A DNA stretch of 23,303 nucleotides from a virus (lineage: Duplodnaviria > Heunggongvirae > Uroviricota > Caudoviricetes). Shown piece after piece: positions 1-23,303 of this stretch (its first letter is position 1; each line of letters starts with the position of its first letter). The stretch lies in the IMG/VR virus record IMGVR_UViG_2859788636_000006; one strand, 5' to 3'. The translations under genes and the position numbers were made by a program. A model generated the notes under the pieces. The model ran no database searches. It had not been told where the DNA came from and worked only from the letters and a program-made list of their open reading frames with translations.

Positions 1-504
1 TTATTGATAGTGTTTTATGTTCAGATAATGCCCGATGACTTTGTCATGCAGCTCCACCGATTTTGAGAACGACAGCGACTTCCGTCCCAGCCGTGCCAGG
101 TGCTGCCTCAGATTCAGGTTATGCCGCTCAATTCGCTGCGTATATCGCTTGCTGATTACGTGCAGCTTTCCCTTCAGGCGGGATTCATACAGCGGCCAGC
201 CATCCGTCATCCATATCACCACGTCAAAGGGTGACAGCAGGCTCATAAGACGCCCCAGCGTCGCCATCGTGCGTTCACCGAAGACGTGCGCAACAACCGT
301 CTTCCGGGGCCTGTCATACGCGTAAAACAGCCAGCGCTGGCGCGATTTAGCCCCGACATAGCCCCACTGTTCGTCCATTTCCGCGCAGACGATGACGTCA
401 CTGCCCGGCTGTATGCGCGAGGTTACCGACTGCGGCCTGAGTTTTTTAAGTGACGTAAAATCGTGTTGAGGCCAACGCCCATAATGCGGGCAGTTGCCCG
501 GCAT
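1..504 (-). CDS. insB: IS1 InsB reading frame (normally expressed as InsAB' transposase by -1 frameshift from insA)
   Basis: 167-aa ORF; translation matches the IS1 InsB sequence as recalled. Confidence 0.9.
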
Positions 505-698
505 CCAACGCCATTCATGGCCATATCAATGATTTTCTGGTGCGTACCGGGTTGAGAAGCGGTGTAAGTGAACTGCAGTTGCCATGTTTTACGGCAGTGA
601 GAGCAGAGATAGCGCTGATGTCCGGCGGTGCTTTTGCCGTTACGCACCACCCCGTCAGTAGCTGAACAGGAGGGACAGCTGATAGAAACAGAAGCCAC
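423..698 (-). CDS. insA: IS1 InsA (transposition regulator, zinc-finger/HTH)
   Basis: 91-aa ORF beginning [39 protein letters not shown], characteristic of InsA; overlaps insB as in IS1. Confidence 0.9.
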
Positions 699-753
699 TG
701 GAGCACCTCAAAAACACCATCATACACTAAATCAGTAAGTTGGCAGCATCACC

Positions 754-1060
754 CATCATCTGTTGCCATACCTAAATCAACCGCATCCTGAAGCGGCGCT
801 ATTACATTCGTTGCCTCTGCTATCAGTGCAGATTTCTTTTCATCATTTATTAAGGCTAATTGTTCTGGTGTTGGAGAAGGACGGTCAACAATGACAGGGT
901 GACCGTTCTCACCACAGGTAATCATTTTTGTTACACTCTGTGAGTTAATCAGTGTTTTCCACTCTGATTCCGAGATTTCCACTGCATCATCAGGAATATT
1001 GGTGCCGTGAAATTCAGTCGAATAAAATCCGTTTGTCGATGCAGAATAAAAATATGACAT
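754..1060 (-). pseudogene. tfa: Tail fibre assembly protein (Tfa), 3'-truncated by the IS1 insertion
   Basis: Internal Met gives the Tfa-typical N-terminus MSYFYSASTNGFY, starting 4 nt after the tail-fibre stop; the frame runs into the IS1 end at 753 and stops inside IS1, so the usual C-terminal part is missing. Confidence 0.75.
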
Positions 1061-1064
1061 TTCG

Positions 1065-1856
1065 TTAATATCCCATTGCAATGTAATACGCATCAGCAGA
1101 TGAACCATATCCTGAACCGGGCGACACTGTAATATCAAATCCAGTGTTATGGACATTTGTCGCCGATACAGTCGGCTGCCCTGACGCGCCAGTAACGTTC
1201 AATGTAACTGTGACAGCAAGGACTCTTGAGAATGTCATCGGGAACCTCATCCCGTATGTTGAAGATACATTCGGGGAGCCATTCAACTGACCGCACTGTA
1301 AAATTAATCCAGACGGAAATTTTTGCGCAGCAGCCGTTGCGGTATTACTTGACGCGAACAGGCTCATATCAGGTATCTGATTCGCCCCTGTACCTACATT
1401 CCTTTTAGCCGCTTCTCCCAAACCAAGGTATGTGAGAATGTCAGCAATAGTATTTTTCCCAATAATGTCACGGCCAACAGAAGTTAAATCAGTCTGCGCT
1501 GCTGTATCATTTCCAGTGAAATATGGGAGTTTATTTGCACCTGTTGCGAGCCCAGCTAATGCCGACAGCGTGGCATCAAGCGCCTGGAAATCTTTCCCGA
1601 AAGCGGTCCCCATTTTGGATATAAACCCGTTCAGGTCTCCATCATCAAGCACATCCAGCCTGCTTTTGTTGGCGGTGTACTGCGCCAACGCTGCCGCGAT
1701 AAAGCTGGCTTGCCGAATAGCTTTGTTGACCTGTGCGCTGGATGCTTTACCTGCCGTAAACCCTGAAAGCAGAGCCGGAAGTGCTTCCCAGTCAGCTTGT
1801 GAGGTGACGTTAGCGTTCGGATCAAGCGCGAAAGGTTTAAAGTTGTTTATTGCCAT
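1065..1856 (-). CDS. Tail fibre protein (side tail fibre, Stf / Mu S-like)
   Basis: Position between baseplate genes and tfa; Gly/Ser/Thr/Ala-rich sequence ending YYIAMGY; likely ATG at 1856 overlaps the upstream stop (TAATG); the ORF track's alternative start is 1874. Confidence 0.65.
   Translation of the reverse strand: MAINNFKPFALDPNANVTSQADWEALPALLSGFTAGKASSAQVNKAIRQASFIAAALAQYTANKSRLDVLDDGDLNGFISKMGTAFGKDFQALDATLSALAGLATGANKLPYFTGNDTAAQTDLTSVGRDIIGKNTIADILTYLGLGEAAKRNVGTGANQIPDMSLFASSNTATAAAQKFPSGLILQCGQLNGSPNVSSTYGMRFPMTFSRVLAVTVTLNVTGASGQPTVSATNVHNTGFDITVSPGSGYGSSADAYYIAMGY
1413..1438. other. Candidate DNA-invertase crossover site (hix/gix/cix-like 26-bp site) inside the tail-fibre gene
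   Basis: TTCTCCCAAACC-AA-GGTATGTGAGAA matches the hixL sequence as recalled (TTCTTGAAAACC-AA-GGTTTTTGATAA) at about 20 of 26 positions, including the AAACC-AA-GGT core; half-sites are near-palindromic; lies about mid-gene. No partner site or invertase gene in the window. Confidence 0.35.
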
Positions 1857-2536
1857 TAGAGTATTGTCCCCCATGCTCCAACATCGAACCCGCCGATGTA
1901 TTCGTTATCCATATCAAACCCAAAGAATTTAGAGCCCTCGGATGGTGCTTCTACCGAAGGCGTTTCAACATCACCGGCCCATACGCCAGCTGCTTTAACG
2001 GTGAGATAGCCCTGTTTGATAGCGGCAATCAGTTCAAGAGACACATCAGAAATATCAGTCTCGGGGAATACCCAAACCGATATCGTCATGTCCTGGTTGT
2101 CGACAATTTGCATCCTCAGGCCTGAGCCTTCAGTCGCAGCGTCAAGGATGGGAGGCAGAGAGTCGTTCCGACCGTCCCAGTTGTTGATAGCGATTTTCGC
2201 TTTCAGAATGATGCGGTACGTCTCATCGCTTAGCGTCGTATAGCCAGAATCAGGATCATATGGCCCTTTCCAGATGCCCTGGTCATACCCAAGCCCGTCA
2301 GTGTCCCAGCTGAAATAAACTCCGCTAATTGGCTGGCTGACTATGCGACTGCGTCCGATCCACAGACCGAGGATGTCGAGCTGTACACCGACAGCAGTAT
2401 CAATATCGAAGGCTGTTATAAGCCCTGACATAGTGCTGGACACATCAATCAGCGGGCGGGTGCTCAGATCTATATGGTCAAAAAAGAGTGGCTTGGTAGC
2501 GTGGTAGTTAGTGATCAGTTCGGTGTATTTGCTCAT
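1856..2536 (-). CDS. Baseplate/tail protein following baseplate J (YmfQ/XkdU/gpI-like, putative)
   Basis: 226-aa ORF; ATG overlaps the baseplate J stop (ATGA); synteny J -> this gene -> tail fibre. Family assignment from memory, not searched. Confidence 0.5.
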   Translation of the reverse strand: MSKYTELITNYHATKPLFFDHIDLSTRPLIDVSSTMSGLITAFDIDTAVGVQLDILGLWIGRSRIVSQPISGVYFSWDTDGLGYDQGIWKGPYDPDSGYTTLSDETYRIILKAKIAINNWDGRNDSLPPILDAATEGSGLRMQIVDNQDMTISVWVFPETDISDVSLELIAAIKQGYLTVKAAGVWAGDVETPSVEAPSEGSKFFGFDMDNEYIGGFDVGAWGTIL

Positions 2537-3732
2537 GAGGTCACCGTGATACTGATATTCGCGGTGCTACAGGACGCAGAAGCATCATAGGCAATATCAA
2601 TGTTTGATGCCGATACGCTGCCAGACGACTTACCGATCAGCAGGTCGGTAATATCGTAATAGCGGGCATTCCCGCCGCTCACAACGCCGAGGTTTGCCGG
2701 GGAATAAATACGGCTCAGCAGAACGTCGTCGCCAATTGTTAGGCCATTTATATAATCGGCAACAGCCTGTTTAATCTGCTCGCCGATTTGAGAGGTATAG
2801 CCGGTAAAAACTTTCAGGGTAATGGCTACGAAAATTGGCACATCGGTAGAGCGCGAAAAACTGATGACGTGTGGATTACCGTAAGTATCCGGCACCGTGA
2901 CAGAAGTTTTACCGTAAGTTGCGGTTCCCTGCCCTTTACTCCCCCGGATTGTTTGGGCTATCTCGGTAACATCCCCTCCATCGACGATGGCGGAAATAGA
3001 GTGTGGCGGCAGCCCGTTGCTGTCGGTTGCCCCAGTGTCGTTCTCATATAGTTTGTGACGTGTCACGCCAGCAACATTAGCGATAGCACCGTCGACACCT
3101 TCAAACGGTGTGATCGATGGTAGCGCGACGCTTTGCCCCTGCCGAATGCGCAGCTCTGCGTCGGTTTCGGCTGGTGAACCGACAGTAGCCGCAACTGGAT
3201 TGGTTACCGACACCCAACCTCGGGTCGGGGTGTTGATAGTGGTAATAGTCCCGGCCAGCGCCGCAACCGAACCGCTATTCGCACATGTGGCCGTCACCAG
3301 CACAGTACCATCAACGCCGATCGCTACACTTGCGGGAAAATTCCAGATAATGCCGTTTTTATCCCGTGCGGAGCCATTCGTGATAGTCGTGCCTGCCGTA
3401 CCGGTTAACAGAAGGTCAGCAGTAGAGTTTGTCGCTACTTTTCGCGTGATCCCGTTAATTTTCACATTGCTGCTAAGCGCTGCGGCCTGCGCTGTCGTCG
3501 GTGAAAAAGAGTTGTAGATCCCGATAGCGGTGTTGTTAGCGTCATGCACGGCAAGAGCCACCAGCGCGACCATCTGCCCGTCTTTGCTGTCTGGTTCGAG
3601 GTAGGCATCACTACCGTAAATCTGCCTGAAATAGCTGGTCAGTGTATCTAGGATTGTCTGGTAATCAGGCGCACTAATCCCCTGGGCGGTTACCGTTGCC
3701 GATAGCCCCAGCGTGTCGAGGTTCAAAGCCAT
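2533..3732 (-). CDS. Baseplate J-like protein (gp47/gpJ family)
   Basis: 399-aa ORF in canonical position between the small wedge protein and the tail-fibre genes; size and sequence character fit the Baseplate_J family. Confidence 0.65.
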   Translation of the reverse strand: MALNLDTLGLSATVTAQGISAPDYQTILDTLTSYFRQIYGSDAYLEPDSKDGQMVALVALAVHDANNTAIGIYNSFSPTTAQAAALSSNVKINGITRKVATNSTADLLLTGTAGTTITNGSARDKNGIIWNFPASVAIGVDGTVLVTATCANSGSVAALAGTITTINTPTRGWVSVTNPVAATVGSPAETDAELRIRQGQSVALPSITPFEGVDGAIANVAGVTRHKLYENDTGATDSNGLPPHSISAIVDGGDVTEIAQTIRGSKGQGTATYGKTSVTVPDTYGNPHVISFSRSTDVPIFVAITLKVFTGYTSQIGEQIKQAVADYINGLTIGDDVLLSRIYSPANLGVVSGGNARYYDITDLLIGKSSGSVSASNIDIAYDASASCSTANISITVTS

Positions 3733-4086
3733 TTATGCCTCGCTTGTTACAGTCGTCTGGCCGTAGATTGTGTCAATGGAGGAAGTGAAGGTGACGCGAC
3801 GGCTGGTGCCGTCATAATTGGTATCGAAGGAAAGAATCGACAGAACGCCCGGTGTATCCTGTATGCGTTCGCGTATAGCCAGGATGTAGACATCTGATCG
3901 CTGCTTCCCAAGCACTGACTGAACATACGGCGTGCCTTCCGTCAGATCGAGAAACCACTGACCGCGCCACAGCTCGAAACGGGTTTTTACGGCCTGGGCG
4001 ACACATTCCGGACTGTCGATAAGGAAAGTATCGTCACCCTGGCCGAAAGTGTAATCGCCTTCAGTATCTTCGCGACGGTATCGCAT
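3733..4086 (-). CDS. Small baseplate wedge protein (gp25/gpW-like or XkdS-like, putative)
   Basis: 117-aa ORF; start overlaps the spike stop (TAATG); position between spike and baseplate J as in Mu/P2/PBSX-type baseplate modules. Confidence 0.5.
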   Translation of the reverse strand: MRYRREDTEGDYTFGQGDDTFLIDSPECVAQAVKTRFELWRGQWFLDLTEGTPYVQSVLGKQRSDVYILAIRERIQDTPGVLSILSFDTNYDGTSRRVTFTSSIDTIYGQTTVTSEA

Positions 4087-4826
4087 TATTGCGGCCCTCC
4101 GGTAGTTCCCCCGCCAGTCTGTACTCCGCCATGTTTATGCGTGGCGACACTGATACCAGAAGCTGTTACGTCATTCGTTACCATCACCGGCCCAAGCATC
4201 GTCGCAGTACCGCCGCTTTCGCCCATTCCCTGAGACAAGTTGCCATTAATCGTTACGTTGCCGTTCAGCGTGATAGTCGGGGATGTGATTGTCGTTCCAC
4301 CTTCAGCCGTAGCTGTAAGCTGGCCCGGTGTTTTAATGGTGATGTTATGTCCTGCGGCGACTTCTACAAACGCCGCACCATCATCGGTTCGCAGCTGCGC
4401 GGCGCTGGTACTGATACCGCTGATTTTCCGTGCTTGCGACTGCGGGCCAACGATGGCGAACGCATCAGATAAGTCATGCTGGCGCGGGTCGACGGTCTCC
4501 TGAACGCCGCCGCTCTGCCACCAAAAATCGATGCAACGGTCAGCAAAAATCAGGAGGCACTCGTCGCCTTCTTTTACCGGAAAGGTCAGCGTGCAACCGC
4601 CGCCGCGCGGGAAGATGACCGGCACATCCACCAGCGGTTTTAATTCGGTGGATCCATCGCCAACAATACCGCGTAGCGCCACCTCTACTGTGCAGGTAAC
4701 AGTCTCAGGATCGAACGACTGAATGATGCCGGGCATCGCTACGCGCATCTGGGTAGACACCGAATCGGCAATGGCCTGCGCGGTCTGCTGCTCACCGCCG
4801 ATCTGTGATTGAGTTGGAATTGGCAT
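4086..4826 (-). CDS. Baseplate central spike protein (gpV / Gp138-N-like OB-fold with Gly-rich C-terminal region)
   Basis: 246-aa ORF; N-terminus MPIPTQSQ...MPGIIQSFD typical of spike N-domains; C-terminus Gly/Thr-rich; GGGGG Shine-Dalgarno 4 nt upstream. Confidence 0.6.
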   Translation of the reverse strand: MPIPTQSQIGGEQQTAQAIADSVSTQMRVAMPGIIQSFDPETVTCTVEVALRGIVGDGSTELKPLVDVPVIFPRGGGCTLTFPVKEGDECLLIFADRCIDFWWQSGGVQETVDPRQHDLSDAFAIVGPQSQARKISGISTSAAQLRTDDGAAFVEVAAGHNITIKTPGQLTATAEGGTTITSPTITLNGNVTINGNLSQGMGESGGTATMLGPVMVTNDVTASGISVATHKHGGVQTGGGTTGGPQ

Positions 4827-4834
4827 AAAACCCC

Positions 4835-4860
4835 CATAAAAAAACCAGCCGAAGCTGGTT
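4835..4860 (-). terminator. Intrinsic terminator on the minus strand (7-bp stem, UUCG tetraloop, 7-8 U tract), 17 nt upstream of the spike start codon
   Basis: Minus-strand RNA AACCAGC-UUCG-GCUGGUU followed by UUUUUUUAU; read directly from the sequence. Confidence 0.6.
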
Positions 4861-5048
4861 TGGTATCAATTATCTCTTAGTAACTAAGCTACATCAGTGT
4901 GAAGTAAGGCTTTTCCGCTGCAATGGCACACATTCACAAGGTGTATTAGGATATGTTTGCAACAAGTAAGCATTGAAAATCAATTTCAGCCATGAAGCCG
5001 CCATAGAGTGGACCTGCACCATCGCATTATTGACTACAGGAGTAACAA

Positions 5049-5339
5049 ATGGGATTTAGATTTCGTAAAAGAATCCGGATTGCGCCCGGACTCGCGATCA
5101 ACATTAGTAAAAGCGGAGTAAGCACTTCAATTGGTGGTAAAGGTTCCACCATTAACATCGGGAAAAAAGGCGTAAAGATGACAAATGGCCTTCCCGGCAC
5201 GGGGCTGTCGCATACCACTAACCTTTACTCTCCCGGGAAATCGACAGAAAAAAAACAACTTACTCATAAGCAAAAAATAATTAGAAACATCCTGTTCGTA
5301 ATTATTGTGTTTATAATAATTAAAGCTCAATATTTTTGA
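5049..5339 (+). CDS. Small C-terminally membrane-anchored protein with DUF4236-like N-terminal motif; insert cargo gene of unknown function
   Basis: 96-aa ORF; AGGAG Shine-Dalgarno 6 nt upstream of ATG; N-terminus MGFRFRKRIRIAPGLAINISKSGVSTSIGGKGSTINIGKKG matches the DUF4236 motif as recalled; C-terminal hydrophobic segment NILFVIIVFIIII; markedly AT-rich; opposite strand to all flanking phage genes; followed by a terminator. Confidence 0.7.
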   Translation: MGFRFRKRIRIAPGLAINISKSGVSTSIGGKGSTINIGKKGVKMTNGLPGTGLSHTTNLYSPGKSTEKKQLTHKQKIIRNILFVIIVFIIIKAQYF

Positions 5340-5344
5340 CGCAT

Positions 5345-5375
5345 GCCCGCCTATCTGGCGGGCTATTTTACTTTT
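5345..5375 (+). terminator. Intrinsic terminator for the plus-strand cargo gene (GC-rich hairpin plus U-rich tract), overlapping the 3' end of the convergent minus-strand gene
   Basis: GCCCGCC-tatct-GGCGGGC followed by TATTTTACTTTT on the plus strand, 5 nt after the stop at 5337-5339; on the minus strand the hairpin is followed by an A-rich tract, so termination is likely plus-strand only. Confidence 0.6.
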
Positions 5376-5707
5376 CGGCAGTCGTATGTTGCATACTGAC
5401 GCGGCGAATCCATGCTGGCTTGCAGCCACTGTGCGTTGAGAATGGCTTTGCCGTTTCGATTGATGTACTCAAGACCAACCCATCTTCCAGGCTGATCGGT
5501 AGCCATACGCCAATCCATCTTGATATTGTTATAATCGCCTTTGTTTTTCAGGAAGGTGATTTTTTGCATTTCTGGCTTTGCGCCATTGATTCTGGCTAAG
5601 CCATCATCTGCCCAATGGATTTTAAAATCACCACATTGCTGATCCGCAAAAGCGGGTGCTGATATAAGCACCGCGAACACGGTAACAGTGCAAAGTAAAT
5701 GTCTCAC
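5363..5707 (-). CDS. Secreted/periplasmic protein of unknown function (signal peptide, two Cys), embedded in the baseplate module
   Basis: 114-aa ORF with GTG start 12 nt after the hub stop, preceded by a GAGGTGG Shine-Dalgarno; N-terminus MRHLLCTVTVFAVLISAPAFA-DQQ is a canonical Sec signal peptide with AxA-type cleavage site; Cys near the mature N-terminus and near the C-terminus; GC lower than flanking structural genes. Confidence 0.65.
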   Translation of the reverse strand: MRHLLCTVTVFAVLISAPAFADQQCGDFKIHWADDGLARINGAKPEMQKITFLKNKGDYNNIKMDWRMATDQPGRWVGLEYINRNGKAILNAQWLQASMDSPRQYATYDCRKVK

Positions 5708-5719
5708 GGCCCCACCTCA

Positions 5720-6784
5720 CTAATTCGTCGTCCCTTGCATTGCTTTCGGGCTATAAAGATCACGAGCGCCACGCGCAAAACACATCAAATCCATGTACCA
5801 CGCCTGACCTCTGGTGTCGCCAGTATAGTCGATAGCTTTGACGATATAAACGCCATCCGTCGCAATGCTGGCAGCCTGTGACGTCGTGCCGGTCAGCACA
5901 CGGTTGCCGTTCTCTTCTGTTTCGGTGATACGCCCGGGCGACTGTGCTATTTCGCTATTGCCGAGCGTGGCGCGGTACACCGAAGCCTGATCGAGCTGGA
6001 TAAGACCATTAATACGGATGTTTGGGTTTATCAGGCATCGCACGTTTACTCCGCCACCCATCGTTTGTTGCGGCATACCGATCAGGCCAGTATTGGCATT
6101 CAACACAATGGCTTCGTGAATATATTTATCCTCCGGCACCATCTGGACCTGACCATCCACCAGTTGCCATGTCGCTTTGCACTGCGCAGCAATATTATCC
6201 ATCACGTTGCGGCTGGATGAGTAAATCGCGCGGCCACGAGGAAACACGGTATCAGGAAAATCGCCGGTAATGCCCTGTGTCACGCCGAACGCGTTGAAAT
6301 CCTGCATCGTCGCCCGGTGCAGATCCGCAACGGTATATCCAGCGGCAAGCGTGGTGATGGTGGTCGCATAGAGGAACGCTTCGTGATCACCAATGGCCTG
6401 AATCAACACCCAGGAATCCGTAATGTTGTCCTTCCCGGTGACGGTGAAGCGAATATCACCGTCAAAAATCAGGCCGTAGTTCTGACCGTTCACCTGCCCT
6501 ATCTGGTCTGGTGAAATCTCCCGGGACACACCAACCTGGCTCGCATCAACATCCGGCGCTATACCGTCATACCCGGCAATGATGCGAATTTTGGCAAACT
6601 CCTGCCCAAGTATCTTGTTCGTGGTATCGGTCGAAAGGTTGTAAATTTTCACGTTCGCCACGCGCGGCCAGCGTGTGTCTGCCCACTCGATCTGGAACGT
6701 GACCTTAAAGTCAGACAGGGAAACGCCCTGCCCGTTCTGGTCCAACAGTTGCAGCTCAAAATGGCGCATCCAGTTAAGAGACAT
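5720..6784 (-). CDS. Baseplate hub / tail assembly protein (gpD / XkdQ / Mu gp44-like, putative)
   Basis: 354-aa ORF in the position between tape-measure-proximal genes and the spike; assignment by synteny and size. Confidence 0.45.
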   Translation of the reverse strand: MSLNWMRHFELQLLDQNGQGVSLSDFKVTFQIEWADTRWPRVANVKIYNLSTDTTNKILGQEFAKIRIIAGYDGIAPDVDASQVGVSREISPDQIGQVNGQNYGLIFDGDIRFTVTGKDNITDSWVLIQAIGDHEAFLYATTITTLAAGYTVADLHRATMQDFNAFGVTQGITGDFPDTVFPRGRAIYSSSRNVMDNIAAQCKATWQLVDGQVQMVPEDKYIHEAIVLNANTGLIGMPQQTMGGGVNVRCLINPNIRINGLIQLDQASVYRATLGNSEIAQSPGRITETEENGNRVLTGTTSQAASIATDGVYIVKAIDYTGDTRGQAWYMDLMCFARGARDLYSPKAMQGTTN

Positions 6785-6786
6785 TT

Positions 6787-7092
6787 CTACTCCTGTACGA
6801 AAATGAGGTGGCTGTATGTGCCGAGGTTGGTTTTGGTGGGCTCGTCTGGTGCGCCCTTATCGGTCGCCACCACCAGCGCGCCATCAATGCCAAGCTGTGG
6901 ATATTGTCGTAAAAGGTTTACGCCGGTCAGTAGAGGTACGCCAGAGAGAAGCGCGGCACCGCCGCTATCCATCACGTCCATAATCCAGCCAGCCGCATCA
7001 CGCCAGATGATCCTGAGTGTATACGTGGTATTGCCCAGCAAAACTCGGAACTGCTGATTGTCAGGAGAAAGCGGTATTTCGTTAAACTGCAT
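6787..7092 (-). CDS. Small tail/baseplate protein, unknown family
   Basis: 101-aa ORF with ATG start, tightly packed between the 200-aa protein and the hub gene. Confidence 0.4.
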   Translation of the reverse strand: MQFNEIPLSPDNQQFRVLLGNTTYTLRIIWRDAAGWIMDVMDSGGAALLSGVPLLTGVNLLRQYPQLGIDGALVVATDKGAPDEPTKTNLGTYSHLIFVQE

Positions 7093-7093
7093 A

Positions 7094-7696
7094 TCATCCC
7101 CCGAATGCTGATGTAACGCTTCCGCCCAGCTGGCTCAGCAAGGATTCGTTTGGCGGTGTAGTGGATTTCATCCCGGAATTCTGCACCGCCGATGTGCTGA
7201 CGCCATCCTGCATATCTGATTTATCTGCAACGCTAACGCTCTGCGTCTGCGACATGATCACTTCACGCAGGGTAAGCGTGCAGTTCAGCACGTTCTCGCT
7301 GGTTTTATCCGTTGTCACCTCGATGGCTCGCACCAGCATATTGCTGTAAACCCGCTTTCCGGTCACTACATCGAACGGCACCCTAGAGGACTGGAGATCC
7401 AGTAGTTGCTGATAGGTCTCTTTCGGGCTAAGTCCGGCGCTGAGGCCGATTGACGATGTATCAATGAAGTCCAGCAACGAACCGCCACCTGCGAAGCCGC
7501 ATTCCATCGTGACTTCGCTGGGGCGCTTATACGCATGATCGGCGATGAAACCCGACGCGCTATTCGTTGTTGGCTTCTCCACCGGGTGCTCAGTAATTTC
7601 GAGCGCATCAGAATGCTTTTCAGAAACAACCACGCTGGGGATTAATATTCCAATTCGCCGGGATTGCTGGCGAAAAATTGCTGATAAAATATCCAT
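7094..7696 (-). CDS. Tail protein downstream of tape measure (putative baseplate assembly / XkdP-position protein)
   Basis: 200-aa ORF; ATG overlaps the tape-measure stop (TAATG); function by position only. Confidence 0.4.
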   Translation of the reverse strand: MDILSAIFRQQSRRIGILIPSVVVSEKHSDALEITEHPVEKPTTNSASGFIADHAYKRPSEVTMECGFAGGGSLLDFIDTSSIGLSAGLSPKETYQQLLDLQSSRVPFDVVTGKRVYSNMLVRAIEVTTDKTSENVLNCTLTLREVIMSQTQSVSVADKSDMQDGVSTSAVQNSGMKSTTPPNESLLSQLGGSVTSAFGG

Positions 7697-21297: not shown

Positions 21298-21366
21298 TGA
21301 AGTGGCACACTGAATTTGGCCACCTGAACAGAGGTGATATGCTCACCTCAGAACAACACAGGTGCT

Positions 21367-22538
<1,172 letters not shown>

Positions 22539-22547
22539 CCACTTCAA

Positions 22548-23303
22548 ATCCGAAGAAAATTGCCGGACAAACCGCTCGCTGACATATCAACGAAAGAGGT
22601 GGCAGCAATGCTAAACACCTACGTAGCAGAAGGTAAAGCGGCTTCCGCAAAATTAATCAGGTCAACCCTTGTTGACGTTTTTCGTGAGGCAATAGCCGAG
22701 GGGCATGTAGCAACGAATCCGGTAACAGCAACCCGCACAGCAAAGTCAGAAGTAAGGCGCTCAAGGCTGACAGCTAATGAGTATGTCGCGATTTACCATG
22801 CAGCCGAACCTCTCCCAATCTGGCTGAGGCTAGCAATGGATTTGGCTGTCGTTACAGGGCAGAGAGTCGGCGATTTGTGCAGAATGAAATGGTCAGACAT
22901 AAACGACAACCATCTTCACATTGAACAGAGCAAAACAGGGGCTAAGCTCGCCATTCCGCTGACGCTAACGATTGACGCGCTCAATATCTCATTGGCTGAT
23001 ACACTACAGAAATGCAGGGAGGCCAGCAGCAGTGAAACTATAATCGCATCAAAGCATCACGATCCGCTTTCCCCGAAAACAGTATCGAAGTATTTTACAA
23101 AGGCGAGAAATGCATCAGGACTCTCATTTGATGGAGACCCGCCAACATTCCATGAACTGCGTAGCCTGTCGGCGAGGCTATACCGTAATCAGATTGGCGA
23201 TAAGTTTGCTCAACGTCTTCTCGGACATAAATCAGATTCAATGGCGGCGCGGTATAGGGACAGCCGTGGACGGGAATGGGACAAAATTGAAATCGACAAA
23301 TGA
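22548..23303 (+). pseudogene. int: Lambda-like tyrosine integrase, 5'-truncated by the IS911-like element (catalytic domain only)
   Basis: Translation (IRRKLPDKPLADISTKEVAAMLNTYVAEGKAASAKLIRSTL...HELRSLSARLY...LLGHKSDSMAARYRDSRGREWDKIEIDK) closely parallels phage lambda Int from about residue 110 to the C-terminus; frame is open back to the IS end; the N-terminal arm-binding domain is absent. Confidence 0.9.

Follow-up and report, generated by a model that had tools for sequence, protein, structure and literature searches.

A very probably vestigial Pin/Cin-type crossover site in the tail-fibre gene of an oac1b-type cryptic prophage

The stretch of DNA analysed here (23,303 nucleotides; hereafter, the window) carries in its left part a minus-strand tail-fibre gene that runs from 1874 to 1065 and encodes a 269-aa protein with a Gp53-like_C domain, preceded upstream by a DUF2612 wedge gene and the genes for baseplate J, W and V. 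As summarized in Table 1, the fibre gene is made up of a constant and a variable part and is followed by tfa, to which IS1 supplies the last two codons and the stop across the junction at 753/754; in relatives, the intact tfa encodes 149 aa. Two small ORFs break the baseplate operon at 5049-5707, between gpV and the hub gene, one encoding a plus-strand DUF4236 protein and the other a minus-strand product of 114 aa whose N-terminus resembles a signal peptide and for which Pfam gave no match. These ORFs look like a moron-type insertion, and the region differs in the E. coli prophage of G3/10 described below. At the right end, IS911 (IS3 family, orfA and orfB) is found at 21298-22546; on one side it is flanked by the small terminase gene and on the other by a tyrosine integrase gene (22560-23303) whose 5' end is missing and whose stop codon ends on the last base of the window.

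Table 1. Coordinates of the features around the fibre gene in the window
Feature	Position	Strand	Remarks
Constant N-terminal part of the fibre gene (Sc), codons 1 to ~149	1427..1874	-	Shared by hundreds of E. coli prophages, identity up to 99.8%
Variable C-terminal part (Sv), Gp53-like_C receptor-binding domain (PF21882)	1065..1424	-	Stop codon 1065-1067; exchangeable cassette with tfa
Truncated tfa, Caudo_TAP (PF02413), 119 aa as called	749..1108	-	Alternative ATG at 1060
IS1, 753 of 768 bp (the window begins within IS1)	1..753	-	Prophage-flanking IS1 beside torT
Orphan Pin/Cin-type crossover site, 12-2-12	1413..1438	-	Uniqueness, consensus, register with cixL, gix and pix, identical 26-mer in WEM25/GPEC60
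Outer half-site, Sc side	1427-1438	-	12-2-12 register
Core dinucleotide of the site	1425-1426	-	12-2-12 register
Inner half-site, Sv side	1413-1424	-	12-2-12 register

An exact look-up of the wedge protein led to IS1-rich chromosomes of 4.4-4.6 Mb that are collinear with window 12536..754 at 99.98-100% and then go on with the rest of tfa (149 aa), an opposite-strand gene for a 333-aa Acyl_transf_3 protein, IS1 and torT-torR-torC-torA. The DNA of this acyltransferase gene is ~88% identical to the Sf6-type oac. The published map of the oac1b prophage of Shigella flexneri serotype 1b reads torR-torT-IS1-oac1b-tail genes...terminase-IS911-HK022-like integrase (Sun et al., 2012; PMC3630932), and the right end of the window, with its IS911 and 5'-truncated integrase, agrees with it. 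Both elements share the order torT-IS1-...-tail fibre-baseplate-tape measure-capsid-portal-terminase-IS911-truncated HK022-like integrase, whereas oac1b and the 3' third of tfa are present in the published prophage and were lost from the window through an IS1-adjacent deletion. From this published gene order we infer that the window is the oac1b-type cryptic prophage of S. flexneri at torT, and its host organism likewise. The acyltransferase was also considered as the serotype 6 oacC, and this was rejected because oacC resides in an SfII-like prophage and the gene order here fits oac1b. In the oac1b prophage no recombination, immunity or lysis genes were found and the element was not inducible, and its description mentions neither an invertase nor a crossover site (PMC3630932). 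One relative (L012) has a further copy of the IS911 element inside a Dit-like baseplate gene.

The history of the junction between IS1 and tfa was clarified with the complete chromosome LR213452.1 (L023), which was located by a look-up of the junction-specific truncated Tfa protein and is 100.000% identical to window 1-11108, the IS1 junction included. Beyond IS1, this chromosome continues with torT-torR-torC-torA, and the torT-side flank of IS1 is GTCCATTTC, with the same orientation and flank as in the oac1b-positive relatives, in which IS1 has a copy of this 9-mer on either side. The tfa junction shows no such target duplication, so that a simple IS1 insertion, which would leave tfa on both sides and a duplication of ~9 bp, does not fit. 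The kept torT-side flank, together with the lack of a target duplication at tfa, is the mark of a deletion adjacent to IS1 rather than an insertion in tfa, and a 1449-bp deletion of this kind has removed oac1b and the 3' end (the last third) of tfa, the deleted stretch corresponding to L011 11783-13232. The original prediction, which had IS1 inserted in tfa inside an invertible segment, does not hold in this respect, IS1 being the prophage-flanking copy. The truncated Tfa (119 aa) specific to the junction is present in 37 assembly-collection blocks, including 3 with contigs >1 Mb; among complete E. coli genomes the IS1-tfa junction of the window had no match, and it was found only via exact-protein look-ups. 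It can be inferred from PMC3630932 that without oac1b the strain should lack group-6 O-acetylation and be 1a-like instead of 1b, and as a practical by-product the deletion would alter the serotype read-out of such strains.

Other rearrangements at this end of the prophage came to light as well. In CP097828.1 (L010), a larger IS1-adjacent deletion with the same torT-side flank ends at 11276/11277, equivalent to window 1261 and located within Sv; evidently, the IS1 adjoining torT eroded the prophage end more than once. In the draft contig ABSIDY010000008.1 (L014, 12552-20681), the exact IS1-tfa junction is followed by plasmid-type genes (StbA/StbB partition, methylase, antirestriction) and no torT; IS1 may have mediated a cointegrate or rearrangement here, or the assembly may be chimeric across this element.

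The fibre gene contains the 26-mer TTCTCCCAAACCAAGGTATGTGAGAA, whose position was confirmed by a sequence check of the window and which is the sole match on both strands of the 23.3-kb window even with up to 3 mismatches allowed. The consensus TTNTCNNAAACCNNGGTTTNNGANAA likewise matches this locus alone in the window, with 1 mismatch at 18 specified positions, and shuffled controls gave matches in 0 of 100 cases, none being expected by chance. On the gene strand, the site reads TTCTCACATACC TT GGTTTGGGAGAA (outer half, core and inner half; window 1411-1426 is GCTTCTCCCAAACCAA) and forms codons 146-154 of the fibre gene, coding for LTYLGLGE. Its layout is that of a crossover site, a 2-bp core separating 12-bp half-sites that are imperfectly inverted copies of each other, it fits the family consensus, and it is nearly identical to sites that recombine: core and inner half agree at 14 of 14 positions with the repeat TTGGTTTGGGAGAAGG of the e14 P segment, and the whole site at 25 of 26 with the fibre-side site of the prophages of E. 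coli C10 and C11. The resemblance to Hin/Gin/Cin/Pin crossover sites from which the original prediction started was therefore borne out by the consensus, the e14 repeat and the uniqueness of the match, and the alignment that it had called for with known gix, cix and pix sites gave the same 12-2-12 register in P1, D108 and e14. By sequence and descent, we regard the 26-mer as a genuine Pin/Cin/Gin-type invertase crossover site.

Homology comparisons placed the site at a break within the gene. The constant-side homology starts at ~1403-1423 in most of the 30 matches listed of 697 E. coli records, that of the E. coli prophage of ECONIH5 starts at 1412, and the cassette-side homology in the Sf phages stops at window ~1429. 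The homology thus breaks within 1403-1429, in agreement with the claim that the site sits where the fibre gene splits into constant and variable parts, and the site marks the mosaic boundary of the gene. The Sv-tfa cassette (window 754 to ~1429) is found again, 94.7-99.8% identical, in tail modules of very different kinds, being joined to the H constant part in a P2-type prophage (L004) and lying silent beside a decayed pinE in an e14-type element (L005). This adds a further clean case of fibre cassettes swapped between unrelated tail modules (window type, P2-type and e14/SfV-type) exactly at a crossover site. Among the serotype-converting phages, the identity of the cassette amounts to 99.0% in SfI (JX509734), 98.7% in SfIV (KC814930), 96.7% in SfII (KC736978) and 94.7% in SfV (U82619). 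Such likeness suggests that the cryptic prophage may recently have exchanged the cassette with serotype-converting phages in shared Shigella hosts.

The identical 26-mer was also found in related E. coli prophages that retain an invertible architecture. WEM25, GPEC60 and G3/10 each contain a window-type prophage adjoining tonB-yciI with the gene order fibre-tfa-tfa' (opposed)-S'v (opposed, promoterless)-182-aa recombinase. In WEM25 and GPEC60 (L002/L003), the baseplate genes and the constant part of the fibre gene are 97-99.8% identical to those of the window, and the identical 26-mer is accompanied by an inverted partner, TTATAAAAAAGGTTGGTTTGGGAGAA, ~1.8 kb from the fibre-side site; in G3/10 the constant part differs (209-aa fibre). 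The 182-aa recombinase has Resolvase and HTH_7 domains, aligns over residues 1-181 with Mu Gin structures (E=1e-56), and is 100% identical to the invertase of mEp237 and 51-56% identical to Gin, Cin and Hin (52% to Cin). When the 5' ends of the invertase genes of the relatives were compared with the annotated P1 enhancer, the stretch proved to be conserved, but the same stretch encodes the catalytic N-terminus, so that coding constraint may equally explain it. The Fis-dependent enhancer of the family normally lies in this 5' end, and the window has no invertase gene that could carry it. ECONIH5 (L022) carries at the torT locus the order torR-torT-invertase (frameshifted)-silent gp53-like cassette-tfa'-tfa-fibre, with inverted sites bounding the segment. 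The second cassette, the invertase gene and the partner TTATAAAAAAGGTTGGTTTGGGAGAA are kept in the prophages of WEM25, GPEC60, G3/10 and ECONIH5, whereas the lineage of the window has oac1b and IS1 in their place. The window-type prophage of ECONIH5 (1700-4635) and the Shigella element both lie at torT, so that they may have an integration site in common or descend from one ancestor, though no att site was found for the oac1b prophage (PMC3630932).

Natural inversion was seen directly in the same P2-type prophage of E. coli C10 (L021) and C11 (L020), which are exact inversion isomers. Their flanks of 3520 and 3515 bp are 100% identical, and the interval of ~1.85 kb between them is present in opposite orientations, a 1868-bp segment being flipped with one mismatch. 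The breakpoints fall within TTGGTTTGGGAGAA; the outer half-sites are unmoved and the inner halves exchanged. The fibre-side site differs from the 26-mer of the window at a single base. Both strains have, between the fibre and sheath genes, an invertase gene coding for 197 aa. This P2-type prophage is the only one for which a strict inversion pair was demonstrated; among 5,426 genomes, no exact isomer of the junction predicted for a flip in WEM25 was found, only the same cassette class joined to this Sc.

In the lineage of the window itself, neither a partner nor an invertase was detected. The search covered the window, ~9.2 kb past IS1 in LR213452.1 and the loci of close relatives: those ~9.2 kb were devoid of an inverted partner when up to 7 mismatches to the 26-mer or up to 4 mismatches to the consensus were tolerated, and the close relatives L006, L007 and L010-L017 showed no second site at up to 6 mismatches. 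The 182-aa and 197-aa invertases, used as tblastn queries, gave no significant match in the window or in 11 close relatives, namely these ten and LR213452.1. Two opposed Sv-tfa cassettes were likewise absent, the single cassette being followed by oac1b-IS1-torT in the intact relatives or by IS1-torT in LR213452.1, and L006, L007, L010-L017 and L023-L026 are all alike, with no second orientation among them. The expectation of an invertible segment that holds tfa and the variable part and extends beyond the window, with an inverted 26-mer and an invertase gene in the flank, was thus contradicted by the tor genes that begin there in LR213452.1. The idea of a shufflon also met with homologues devoid of an intact invertase: the SfII-type prophages L008 and L009 carry the site as plain coding sequence. 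In these SfII-like E. coli prophages, a 38-aa remnant of a Gin-like invertase (8376-8489; 55-58% identity to residues 75-112) was noticed, the gene order being fibre-tfa-acyltransferase-ISSfl9-gtrII, and they seem to have lost an invertible fibre segment as well. SfI, SfIV, SfII and SfV, which we take to be without an invertase gene, carry the same cassette up to the joint.

On this evidence, we consider it extremely improbable that the site actively bounds a host-range invertible segment on the left, as first proposed, with its partner and a pin/gin-like invertase gene located beyond an IS1 that had simply inserted in tfa. That proposal draws on the existence of such an architecture, with the identical 26-mer, in related E. 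coli prophages, and on the fact that the window ends within IS1 and its own left flank lies outside; against it stand the torT-torR-torCA order past IS1 in a chromosome matching window 1-11108 throughout, more than 10 close relatives reading tfa-oac1b-IS1-torT with no second cassette, partner or invertase, and the IS1 itself, which has no target duplication at tfa and a flank identifying it as the pre-existing torT-side copy. The 26-mer might instead be nothing but the DNA of a conserved fibre motif, LGLGE, with an incidental likeness to invertase sites and no recombination ever having taken place here. Protein constraint by itself could indeed keep much of the sequence, and SfI, SfII, SfIV, SfV and the SfII-like prophages lacking an intact invertase carry it as plain coding DNA. 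However, where the identical 26-mer occurs in prophages of this type, its inverted partner lies at the start of the promoterless S'v, next to an intact Gin-like invertase gene, one invertase-bearing prophage of this type occupies the same torT locus (that of ECONIH5, with its frameshifted invertase), the constant-side and cassette-side homologies both break around the core dinucleotide, and a site with one base different shows clean natural inversion in C10/C11. We thus rate a purely coding origin as very unlikely.

It was further considered that a Pin-type invertase encoded elsewhere might pair the orphan site with a near-identical site in the fibre gene of a co-resident SfI/SfII-type prophage, giving large inversions or cassette exchange. 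Members of this invertase family normally require an enhancer in cis and a supercoiled synapse, which speaks against such action in trans; the examined stretches of these genomes contain no invertase gene, and all of the 20-plus assemblies of the lineage show one orientation and the same flanks. In its favour, the sites of the SfII-type L008 and L009 have an identical inner half and core, the Sv-tfa cassette of the window is 99.0% identical to that of SfI, a phage typical of serotype 1 strains, and PinQ, PinR and PinE are able to invert the e14 P segment in trans (PMC12529663). If true, this would drive chromosomal inversions or site-specific swaps of receptor-binding cassettes between prophages, and would explain both the 99% identical cassette and a joint lying exactly at the core dinucleotide. 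Ordinary homologous recombination, however, explains that identity equally well, and we give the proposal very little credence.

The explanation that we favour is that the 26-mer is, very probably, a vestigial and locked crossover site at the Sc/Sv joint of a defective prophage, now serving as coding sequence only. In the fibre of this myovirus-type prophage, Sc would attach to the baseplate and Sv bind the receptor, the site lying at their joint. In the ancestral phage, of which E. coli still has representatives, a Gin-like serine invertase encoded at the prophage edge would have flipped a segment of ~1.85 kb that held two opposed Sv-tfa cassettes between the site and its inverted partner, each flip switching the receptor-binding domain. 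In the lineage of the window, the partner site and the second cassette are missing along with the invertase gene, and tfa is followed by oac1b and IS1 instead; in the source genome, the 1449-bp deletion then took oac1b and the last third of tfa. Inversion would no longer be supported and the fibre would be fixed in one configuration, with tfa truncated. The order of these events, and past recombination of the site in the Shigella lineage, are deduced from the relatives. The oac1b-type S. flexneri prophage would accordingly descend from a phage with a Gin-like host-range switch, which was presumably lost when oac1b and IS1 replaced the invertase end. The site is a further vestigial case of a well-known kind in an already published element, and its significance beyond annotation is slight. 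Relics of such sites reportedly occur in P2 gene H and other fibre genes; the papers covered by our literature search contained no report of vestigial cix-like sites.

Finally, the site was compared with known crossover sites taken from the annotated records of P1, D108 and K-12. On the gene strand, P1 cixL reads CAATCCTAAACC TT GGTTTAAGAGAA, with the annotated crossover within TT, D108 gix reads TTATCCAAAACG TC GGTTTACAGGAA, and the stfP-side site of K-12 e14 reads CTCTCGAAAACC TT GGTTTGGGAGAA. The closest likeness was to the pix site of e14, whose P segment inverts experimentally between the repeats TTGGTTTGGGAGAAGG and CCTTCTCCCAAACCAA and is inverted in trans by each of PinQ, PinR and PinE (PMC12529663). 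The stfP-side site shares the 12-2-12 layout, the TT core and the inner half GGTTTGGGAGAA with that of the window, agrees with it at 22 of 26 positions overall, and likewise lies where Sc meets Sv, in a fibre gene whose C-terminal cassette is Gp53-like and which tfa follows. In contrast, e14 has a pair of inverted sites separated by 1.8 kb, with pinE adjoining, whereas the window has a single site and no invertase, and the outer half-site and the receptor-binding allele differ. A link to the e14 anti-T2 protein StfE2 was dropped, the Gp53-like domain of the window being a different allele that is alike at the LGLGE joint only. P1 and Mu, unlike the lineage of the window, have complete working systems, in which two sites and opposed S'v-U' cassettes are combined with cin or gin, the recombinase gene itself containing an enhancer. 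The cix and Mu/D108 gix sites are nevertheless in the same register as that of the window, with the annotated crossover in the central dinucleotide and an inner half that agrees at 10 of 12 positions in cixL and 9 of 12 in gix. The in-gene position is also comparable, corresponding to ~codons 166-177 in D108 S and ~codons 93-101 in e14 stfP, against 146-154 in the window, and the cix and gix sites share with that of the window the role of splitting gene S into constant and invertible parts.
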